This document shows positions 15,001 to 18,000 of a stretch of DNA of 21,533 nucleotides, piece after piece. Every line of letters begins with the position of its first letter. The first letter of the stretch is position 1. The DNA comes from a virus (taxonomy: Duplodnaviria > Heunggongvirae > Uroviricota > Caudoviricetes): positions 1 to 21,533 of IMG/VR virus record IMGVR_UViG_2869953405_000008, one strand, 5' to 3'. Position numbers: made by a program.

Positions 15001-18000
15001 AGCGGCGCTTTCAGAATATTGTCCAGGTCACGGCGGCGCTTATCCGGTGGTTCTGCAATAATTTTTATTGCCAACCTTCCGGACAGGCTTAATTTCAGCC
15101 GCTGCTGGCGAACAATAAGCGCCACTGCCCGGCGATAACGCTCCCCGGCTTTTGATACAAAATATGTGCTGCCACGACGACGCCAGTAAGTGTTCACCGT
15201 CGGCGGGTAAGGTAAAACAAATTCTATGCGCTCGGTCATTTATGCTTTCCACTTCAGAACACCCGAATTTCTCGCGTGCATTAAAAAACGAATCAGCAAC
15301 AACAGCTGACTGCCGTGTTTCTCTTCAAAATCTTTTACTCCGGCATGTAGTTCGTTACGGCATTTACGGCATAACGGAATAACAAACAAATCATCAGCCT
15401 TTGTTCCCATCCCTCCCAGTCCATGACCAATGATGTGATGCGGATCATCTGCCTGATTGCCACACGTCATGCATTTCTGCGTTTTTACCCAGCGCGTGTA
15501 TACAGGCATCTCTTCCCGTTGTGATTTCTGGCGCTGGAGATACTGAGCCGGTGACTCCGGATCAACGGCAATGCTGACCACCGTCTTTTCCTGTGGTGGG
15601 TTCTGTTGCTGGTGGACGTGAGGCAGTAACGCAATATTTTTTGTGCGCTGCTTCAGTATGCTGGTGGCTGTCTGCTCTCCCGGTATGATGTCGCTTTCAC
15701 TGTACACAGAGCGAATTTTTTCCGCACGCAACCCCAGCGAACGACGTAATACCGCTTCCGGTAGCGCGTCCGCCACCTGATTGCGGACCGCCCACCAGGA
15801 TAATTCAGCCAGAGATAATTCACGCTCCTGCGTACCGCTTATTGCGTGACCGATGACGTCAATCATCCATGCTGACAGGTTTTGATGAGCAAGTTGCTCG
15901 AGTGATTCGGATGTCTGGTCACGCAGCTGGTTGTCGCAGTGCCAGCACAACACCATTGCGCCGGTACCATAACGGTGAATGACGGTTTCGCTGTGATGAT
16001 AATCGCCGTGTGGCCACTGGCAGGATTTAATATGGCGCAACAGCCAGTCAGACAATGCACCAGCACCACCAGCAGCACGAATCACCCGTGCGTTACTGAA
16101 AAACGGCAGCAATGTTTTGTCTTCCACCAGCGGCTGGCGAGCGGCAGGAACGACCCCGGACGGCAGATTACGCATGCTTTTTGGTTCCGGCTCCACCAGT
16201 ATTCTGCCGTTATGGAATGCTGACATTGATTCACGGCCTGGCTTAACGATAACCAGACCGAGTTCCGGTACCAGAACAGGTCGAAGTAATACCCGCACAT
16301 TACCTCCAGATCCGTTGCTGGAATGTGCGGGACGGACGCGTTGGCCGTTCGGAGTAAGGGAGCCTGACGGAGATTATCCAGTGACGGTAGTCGAGGCTAA
16401 GGGCTTTTTTAACCTCGCATCCGCGCCTGCGGTAACACTGAATGAGCCATTCGGCCTGTTCTTCAGTGCATGGGGGATGCTGGTACCAATCAGATTTAAA
16501 TGCGTGAGAGCGCCGCCCGTGCCTGCTGGCAAAGACGGCTGAATTATCAGAATTGTGTAGTCTGGAAGGCAGTGGCTGACAATAGCGCCATTCTCAACGC
16601 GCACAGTATAGAGGCCATCTTCACTAAAAATTTCACGTAATTCTTCGATTTTCATCAACAGAATCCTTCCAGATAAATAGCACTCCCCTGTTCGGGGTCC
16701 ATCCCTCTTCTCCCTGCGCGCTACTTAAGTATTTTTGATTCTATTCCGGCACCATCTAAAACTTCAAACGCGTTGAAAATAAAAACAAAAACCCGCCGAA
16801 GCGGGTTAAGTGTGGGTGCATTGAGGATGCCTGACCCATCAGAGGTGGCGAGGGATTTCTCCCCCGCCTGGTCTCTTACTCCTCAGGTTCGTAAGCTGTG
16901 AAGACAGCGACCTCCGTCTGGCCGGTTCGAATTCGTACCTCGCAGAGGTCTTTCCTCGTTACCAGTGCCGTCACTATGACGGTTAAACAGATGACGATCA
17001 GGGCGATTAACATCGCCTTTTGCTGCTTCATAGCCTGCTTCTCCTTGCCTTTCGGCACGTAAGAGGCTAACCTAGATTTGCCGTTCATAGATTGAGCCTC
17101 AGATTAATGTTAAGCGTCTTGCCGGACGCGTAATGTTAACTGGGGCTTTTCTCTATCTGCCTTTTGGTGTTCATGCCTGAGACAGATAGCCTCAAGCACC
17201 CGCTGCAATTCTACTTAACTCTCCTTTTCCCGCAAACCGTTTTTATCCCCAGCGGCAAATCGAATACACCACCAGCGCCACCGCCATCGCAATTCCTACC
17301 GTTGTTAATGCTTCAGGCCAGGTCATCGTAAAATATCCTCCACGCTTATCAGTCCGTTCCGCTCCAGATAACTCATCGCCTTATCCGGTAATTTGCAGTC
17401 TGGCTTCGCTTTCCTCAGTTGCCAGGTTAACTGCTTTACCAGCATGGTTAACTCATCGACCAGACGCTGATATCCCACTGGTTTGTATTCATGCAATTTA
17501 CCGGCTGGCTCTGCTGCCAGCGATACCAGTGCGATTTCCAGAACAGCAATATCCATCTTATATGTGCGGATGATGTCATGGTCGATTGTGCCCGGTATGC
17601 ACAGTCTCTGTGCTTCAATAGTCTCCTCTGCGTGAGCTATTAACTGCTCTCTGGTAAAAGTCGTCATGCCGTAGCCCCTTCTTGATATTTTTCAAACCAG
17701 AACACAACCGGCTCTGCTTCCAGCGATGCCAGCGCAATCCGTGCCAGTTCCATTTGTTCACCACGGGTAAGCCCGTTTTCAAGCGGGTTTTTAATGAACA
17801 ATTCAATACGTTCTTTGGTAATAGTGGTCATGTGTTACTCCTTAACCCGCAGTGCTTTCAACTGATGAGGGGAACAAAATCTTTTCATCAAACCCTGCAT
17901 TCATATCATGAACAGCAACACACCAATCCATCGACGAACGATTATCAAGAGCCTCCATGATTTCATCCATGCGGCGTAGGTCATACAGGTAAATGCTTTT

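Follow-up and report, generated by a model that had tools for sequence, protein, structure and literature searches.

A very probably complete hok/mok/Sok type I toxin-antitoxin module in a lambdoid prophage

The DNA analysed here, 21,533 nucleotides (nt) from a tailed virus of the Caudoviricetes (IMG/VR record IMGVR_UViG_2869953405_000008, positions 1 to 21,533; this whole stretch is called the window), carries on its minus strand a hok host-killing gene that is very probably part of a complete, prophage-borne hok/mok/Sok type I toxin-antitoxin module of the hokD/hokW subtype. The carrier is a lambdoid prophage, and the locus is an ordinary copy of a well-known host-killing module that was already known. 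Its regulation appears to be full, since a gene for the antisense RNA Sok can be recognized on the plus strand. An earlier note on this DNA had described a hok/mok toxin locus with its own terminator at 16787-17160, without a located Sok partner. Hok, the in-frame mok and the intrinsic terminator are all present, but these coordinates were too narrow: the unit extends from the hok promoter at ~17236, through the mRNA start at 17201 (-), to the terminator tail at ~16781 (Table 1).

The identity of the toxin follows from three comparisons. Hok matches the Pfam family PF01848 (HOK_GEF) with 82.9 bits (cutoff 22, E 1.2e-23) and PHROG 251, 'MokW-like host killing', with E 3e-33, and its sequence is 100% identical to HokD of E. 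coli K-12, with no disruption of the reading frame in the alignment. As the earlier note had described, the 51 amino acids (aa) of Hok lie inside a 70-aa mok-type frame: the open reading frame (ORF) that starts with the ATG at 17088 runs through hok in the same frame. Between Mok and MokW of the Stx2 phage 933W the identity is 89%, with a cluster of differences at residues 2-5. The Shine-Dalgarno (SD) motif GAGG of mok shows no variation in 16 aligned alleles. For comparisons among phages we used 68 phage contigs that encode an identical Hok and keep the leader, collected with a Hok-only query; this replaced a sample ranked by Mok, which was biased toward the allele of the window. In 57 of these 68 loci mok is in frame with hok, as in the window. 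The remaining 11 (L147 and ten other viral loci) carry the allele 'ATG--CGACACATAGAG', in which a 2-nt deletion puts mok out of frame, leaving a 19-codon ORF whose TGA overlaps the hok ATG (ATGA). It thus appears that the Mok peptide is not conserved, whereas translation up to the hok start is. The Tyr47 codon of hok, UAC followed by G (16891-16893, minus strand), has the same sequence as in K-12. For K-12 hokD an editing level of ~6% has been given (preprint; PMC12214031).

The position of Sok follows from the comparison with phage 933W. Its annotation (AF125520) describes sokW as a 71-nt antisense RNA over the first 9 nt of mokW, and from AGGTTAGCC to the hok ATG the window does not differ from 933W; the alignment, together with the sokW feature, therefore places Sok on the plus strand, from G17080 to ~17150. 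When 75 nt from this start are folded, a 9-nt unpaired 5' tail (GCCGUUCAU), complementary to the mok start codon and the bases after it, is followed by a long hairpin and then by UUUUCUCU, which contains a U tract. The hairpin has a predicted energy of -31.4 kcal/mol (z -5.2), and none of 200 shuffled sequences folded as well. Judged by its sequence, the plus strand would thus hold a Sok with its own promoter (17045-17073) and its own terminator hairpin across the mok start, in the region (about 17040-17160) where the earlier note had expected an antisense element. That note had also pointed to inverted repeats at 17150-17200. The repeat is real (TCTATCTG at 17152-17159 and CAGATAG at 17183-17189), but it belongs to the hok mRNA, as the stem of its 5' hairpin, and not to Sok.

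Both promoters were located by homology and spacing. A consensus promoter scanner called neither of them, as each has one hexamer below the threshold. For hok this is the -35 region, which is also poorly conserved among homologues, while the position of the -10 element holds TAGAAT, TATAAT or TACAAT in related loci of several genera. For Sok, the -10 element TAACCT agrees with TATAAT at 3/6 positions. One could argue from this that a separate Sok transcript does not exist, that the plus-strand hairpin (17094-17148) is simply the mirror image of the structured hok leader, and that the two hexamers are conserved because, on the other strand, they encode dcb and flank the hok SD. Indeed, the hexamers overlap or abut elements of the hok strand, so that conservation alone cannot separate the two functions. 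The same hexamers, however, drive sokW in prophage Sp5 of strain Sakai, where mutation of the promoter around its -10 element made the construct toxic, sokW supplied in trans partly restored growth, and the RNA was seen by northern blot (PMC8621323). Moreover, a stable hairpin with a U tract and a 9-nt tail complementary to the mok start corresponds to the published design of Sok. The absence of a Sok transcript is, in our view, very improbable. Consensus folding (RNAalifold) of Sok from distant loci yielded one compensatory pair in the hairpin extension, which carries little weight as ill-placed coordinates had cut the sequences short.

The Rfam scan that the earlier note had proposed returned a match to the full model of RF01794 ('sok antitoxin'; model positions 1-157 of 157) at 17201..17026, yet on the hok-sense strand and not on that of Sok. 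With 112.4 bits against a gathering threshold of 59 (E 3e-25), the locus is not a chance resemblance. Taken literally, the match would put Sok itself on the minus strand at 17026-17201. The model, however, begins with GGGUGCUUGAGG, the 5' end of the mRNA, and ends at the hok AUG, i.e. it covers the hok leader, and on 933W the family falls on the hokW/mokW strand (L001, 2560-2734 (+)), opposite to the annotated sokW. RF01794 thus models the hok-sense leader, and its match in the window confirms that leader but does not place Sok. The minus-strand candidate is refuted by the 933W annotation and the strand of RF01794 there, and we give it practically no credence. Automated annotation can easily be misled by a family that is named 'sok' but matches the other strand.

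In the model published for plasmid R1, the full-length mRNA is locked by pairing between its ends, i.e. between the translational activator element (tac) and the fold-back inhibitory element (fbi), while ucb covers the mok SD; after trimming of the 3' end, tac pairs with ucb and the mok SD with dcb, and both translation and Sok binding become possible (PMC9841398). Folding predicts both of these states from the window sequence. In the full-length RNA (17201..16782; minimum free energy -169 kcal/mol, z -6.8), nucleotides 17201-17190 pair with CCUCAAUGCACCC at 16826-16814, and AGCC of ucb (17147-17144) pairs with GGCU of the mok SD region (17098-17095). In the RNA cut just before fbi, the 5' end pairs with AAGCCCC (ucb), GAGGCU (17100-17095) pairs with AGCCUC (17068-17063), and the mok AUG lies in the upper part of the hairpin so formed. 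All three mRNA elements that the earlier note had listed for a check (tac, fbi and ucb) are therefore present, together with the mok SD and dcb.

The tac/fbi pairing was searched for in the whole downstream region, with shuffled controls. It comprises 12 bp with one bulge at -21.5 kcal/mol, against a shuffle mean of -13.7. Since the best shuffle of the window reached -20.3, energy alone is not decisive, and the argument for tac/fbi is carried by the constant offset and by covariation. A scan of relatives (one genome per species) returned 62 related loci, in which homology usually sets in at 17201 or a few nt from it and often stops exactly at fbi. Escherichia, Photorhabdus, Citrobacter, Pantoea and Erwinia all retain the pairing, 340-375 nt from the start, and compensatory changes on both sides lead from U4-A to C4-G (Photorhabdus and Pantoea), from G12-C to A12-U (Photorhabdus) and from G11-C to A11-U (Citrobacter). 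The diversity of tac is zero in the 68 phage loci. The blocks TAGCCTCTTAC and CAAGGAG, which hold dcb, the flank of the Sok -10 element, the hok SD and the edge of the Sok -35 element, are nearly invariant across genera. Further downstream, the stem-loop of the 3' untranslated region (3'-UTR) is likely to be the 3' end of the processed mRNA; its counterpart in R1 protects the truncated mRNA (PMC9841398). The terminator stem (16807..16790) followed by TTTGTTTTT is the sole site of this kind within the scanned range 16600-17400.

These elements can be assembled into the following scheme. A weak promoter (-10 TAGAAT) would give rise to an mRNA of ~420 nt starting at 17201, which at full length, with tac paired to fbi and ucb covering the mok SD, would be neither translated nor bound by Sok. 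Slow trimming of the 3' end would take off fbi and allow tac to pair with ucb and the mok SD to pair with dcb in the target hairpin, after which mok, and via mok also hok, would be translatable unless Sok binds. Sok, a plus-strand RNA of ~71 nt whose promoter would overlap dcb and abut the hok SD, would use its tail to pair with the loop of the target hairpin and with the mok start. The duplex would, by analogy to R1 Sok and to sokW, block mok translation and be cleaved by RNase III. Once Sok synthesis stops, Hok would be made, a 51-aa toxin of the inner membrane. RecA-dependent induction of Sp5 is accompanied by the loss of sokW and the appearance of HokW, and the authors do not commit themselves to a trigger (PMC8621323). 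In the window, the early-right operon runs in the direction of hok and against that of Sok, and read-through from this operon could interfere with the convergent Sok promoter in this copy. Retention of the prophage, help in lysis on induction as in Sp5, and exclusion of other phages are candidate roles.

Some points weigh against a complete and working module. This copy is known as sequence, and its transcription, processing, toxicity and biological role are those expected by analogy with R1 and hokW-sokW. Both promoters are poor matches to the consensus, the 5' and 3' ends of Sok are predictions transferred from annotation, and three copies of an insertion sequence (IS) disrupt the surrounding prophage, one of them 840 bp upstream. 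The locus could accordingly be a silent relic of the kind found in K-12, intact in appearance but with hok and/or Sok unexpressed or with a broken switch. IS elements or rearrangement are considered to have inactivated the hok loci of K-12 (PMC12214031), and chromosomal hokA, hokB and hokC gave no post-segregational killing or activation by rifampicin, according to a preprint that cites earlier work. In the window, by contrast, all regulatory elements are present and none has a change private to this copy. Compared with 67 phage contigs chosen solely for an identical Hok, the window has zero private substitutions. Where it departs from the majority, the changes spare tac, ucb, the mok SD, dcb, the hok SD and the Sok hexamers, and the one change inside fbi falls on a bulged, unpaired base. 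Across hundreds of copies the locus is constrained (diversity 0.00-0.03 outside the Sok-target segment), and toxin-antitoxin activity is known for hokW-sokW, the nearest relative among those studied. No disabling lesion is seen in this copy, and its regulatory elements look intact. We consider a silent relic improbable and prefer the complete module.

The exception to this constraint is the segment by which Sok recognizes its target. Among the 68 loci, nucleotide diversity in sliding 24-nt windows reaches its maximum of 0.278 exactly at 17097-17074, ~13-fold above the median of 0.021. These ~24 nt (17074-17097) comprise the 5' tail of Sok and the loop and upper stem of its target. About ten allele classes occur among the 68 loci, and that of the window is a minority class (7/68). 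Folded singly, each allele forms a hairpin (-11.3 to -14.4 kcal/mol) that an invariant GAGGC/GCCUC stem closes. RNAalifold on 16 alleles of the target hairpin recovered this outer stem alone, since the register of the inner stems differs between alleles. For the pairing of each Sok (first 22 nt) with its own target, the predicted energies are -40 to -47 kcal/mol; for the Sok of the window against foreign alleles they are -13 to -24 kcal/mol. These modelled energies fit an allele-specific recognition by Sok. The alleles may even reflect selection for mutually orthogonal Sok/hok pairs, a tentative explanation that we hold to be doubtful. If it were true, the Sok of one prophage could not silence the hok of another, like the incompatibility groups of antisense-controlled plasmids, and the control of each toxin would stay with the prophage that carries it. 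Copies in the same genome differ in allele in 8 of 9 pairs, where allele frequencies alone predict ~86% and six of the pairs come from two related genomes. The allele split is not described in the literature searched, which excluded Pedersen & Gerdes 1999 and the T1TAdb paper. This allelic diversity is the sole aspect of the locus that could lead further.

The locus is common. Of 5,426 complete E. coli genomes, 4,933 match it, 3,829 of them over at least 80% of the query, with a median of 2 and a maximum of 9 places per genome. An enrichment of hok in prophages has already been reported by a recent survey (preprint). In RefSeq the locus is annotated as a 'hokD' coding sequence (CDS) alone (51 aa); in marking just this CDS, annotation pipelines omit mok, Sok and the mRNA switch. 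Copies with 93-100% identity were also found in L006, L012, L039, L050, L058 and L065 and in phage PP818812. Their labels refer to metagenome-assembled genomes or drafts of Veillonella, Xanthomonas, Acinetobacter, Haemophilus and Collinsella and to an 'Actinobacillus phage'. Because most of these copies are on short contigs, they probably represent contamination or mis-binning and not a true host range.

Table 1. Elements of the hok/mok/Sok locus in the window (promoters and RNA ends as predicted)
Feature	Position	Strand	Basis or remark
Putative hok promoter, -35 TTTGCG (weak)	17231..17236	-	by eye; 17 nt upstream of the -10 element
Putative hok promoter, -10 TAGAAT	17208..17213	-	6 nt before the mRNA start
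Full-length mok-hok mRNA, ~420 nt	16781..17201	-	start of Rfam match, limits of homology, fold
tac, GGGUGCUUGAGG	17190..17201	-	pairs with fbi (full-length) or ucb (3'-truncated)
5' hairpin of the hok leader	17152..17189	-	in both folds; paired in the Rfam consensus structure
ucb / anti-SD, AGCCCC	17142..17147	-	pairs with GGCU of the mok SD region (full-length) or tac (truncated)
mok SD, GAGG	17097..17100	-	9-12 nt upstream of the ATG; R1 mok SD motif
Sok-target hairpin, mok SD paired with dcb	17063..17100	-	forms solely in the truncated fold; outer stem invariant
mok ORF, 70 aa	16876..17088	-	same frame as hok; ATG at 17088
dcb, AGCCUC	17063..17068	-	pairs with the mok SD region in the truncated fold
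hok SD, AAGGAG	17041..17046	-	read from sequence; CAAGGAG nearly invariant across genera
hok CDS, 51 aa + stop	16876..17031	-	Pfam HOK_GEF, PHROG 251, identity with HokD
3'-UTR stem-loop, GGCGGGGGA-GAAA-UCCCUCGCC	16847..16868	-	in both folds; conserved across genera
fbi, CCUCAAUGCACCC	16814..16826	-	pairs with tac
hok intrinsic terminator	16781..16807	-	7-bp stem with 5 G-C pairs, loop of 4, then TTTGTTTTT
Sok promoter, -35 TTGCCT	17045..17050	+	identical to 933W; nearly invariant across loci
Sok promoter, -10 TAACCT	17068..17073	+	17-nt spacer; 6 nt before the start; identical to 933W/Sp5 sokW
Sok antisense RNA, ~71 nt	17080..~17150	+	sokW misc_RNA of AF125520 transferred by alignment; 3' end +/- ~4 nt

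Along the minus strand the order is nin-like small genes, hok/Sok, a rem-like gene, DUF968, RusA, the Q antiterminator, a DNA methylase, three tRNA genes, a nanS-like esterase and a holin. With a complete module, as the sequence indicates, the small genes nearby would adjoin a self-contained killer cassette and not a remnant like K-12 hokD. Just upstream lies an unannotated ORF for a hydrophobic protein of 27 aa (17243-17326, minus strand), which overlaps the stop of the upstream gene (ATGA), ends 6 nt before the -35 element of hok and has no family match in Pfam or PHROG searches. It is kept upstream of hokW in 933W and in strain GF4, unannotated in both. The rem-like ORF (16374-16658, minus strand, 94 aa) matches PHROG 340 over its first 30 residues only; the GF4 annotation treats its counterpart as a rem pseudogene that contains an internal stop, and the copy in the window may be altered too.

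A 1,265-bp element, which we take to be of the IS3 family and to resemble IS600, occurs three times (5685-6949 (+), 10412-11676 (+) and 18041-19304 (-)), with 99.9-100% identity and ORFs of 100 and 272 aa in each copy. The gene at 17842-18072, which matches its PHROG profile from position 21 onward, seems to be cut by the copy whose end lies 840 bp upstream of the start of the hok mRNA. The three copies suggest a defective, IS-ridden prophage, possibly of Shigella origin. Two matches to the small RNA STnc100 (161 and 124 bits; 10100-10309 and 11854-12043, minus strand) flank the middle IS copy, just downstream of the three tRNA genes (12123-12369) and the Q antiterminator. Stx phages carry their stx genes at this position; an ORF resembling stx was not seen here. 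Unrelated to the hok locus, isrK (72 bits) and the C4 antisense RNA (76 bits) are adjacent at 733-918 (+).

Compared with hokD (relF) of K-12, which lies in the cryptic prophage Qin, the window represents the undisrupted form. Hok is identical, the DNA between the hok SD and the terminator, fbi included, agrees at 97.9%, and the downstream neighbours in Qin are the same (rem-like, then the DUF968 gene, ydfU-like). The homology, however, begins ~15 nt before the hok ATG (break at ~17046), and in K-12 relE lies immediately upstream. K-12 hokD therefore lacks the hok promoter, tac, ucb, the mok start and the Sok gene, in agreement with PMC12214031, which ascribes the inactivation of hokD to genomic rearrangement, and RF01794 has no match there. 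The alignment with a K-12 sokD that the earlier note had suggested has no counterpart, since K-12 has none and shares sequence only from this break onward. The window, with its full leader, is not such a truncated relBE-hokD fusion, a junction that was found in 10 of 78 phage contigs with an identical Hok and also in five genome loci.

The hok/mok/sok system (parB) of plasmid R1 has the same elements, with a two-state switch, a GAGG mok SD and Sok over the mok start. The similarity between the Hok proteins is distant (44% identity between HokW and R1 Hok), and in R1 mok is out of frame with hok, whereas it is in frame in the window. The replicon is a plasmid for which post-segregational killing is proven, in contrast to the window, a prophage, for which that role is not. 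For R1, the toxicity of Hok, repression by Sok, cleavage by RNase III and slow 3' processing are known (PMC9841398). Loci of the hokC/mokC/sokC (gef) type also have mok in frame and conserve the blocks of the leader, the SD and the Sok promoter (L023-L033; H29), at ~74% DNA identity to the window, but they lack the 16-nt extension of the Sok hairpin.

This extension, relative to the Rfam consensus, is shared with hokW-mokW-sokW of the Stx2 phage 933W and the Sakai prophage Sp5 (AF125520; Takada et al. 2021, PMC8621323), which is 92.8% identical in DNA to the window over 91% of the locus. The two are also alike in their architecture, in an in-frame mok of 70 aa, in the identical stretch of dcb, Sok promoter and hok SD, and in being prophage-borne. 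They differ in the first ~9 nt of Sok and the target loop (ATGAACGGCAAATCT in the window against ATGCTGAACACATGT in 933W), where 6 of the first 10 nucleotides of Sok are changed, and in four C-terminal residues of Hok. Phage 933W is without the terminator hairpin of the window, and its locus lies near the prophage end by L0134-L0136, whereas that of the window lies between the nin-like genes and the DUF968-RusA-Q genes.

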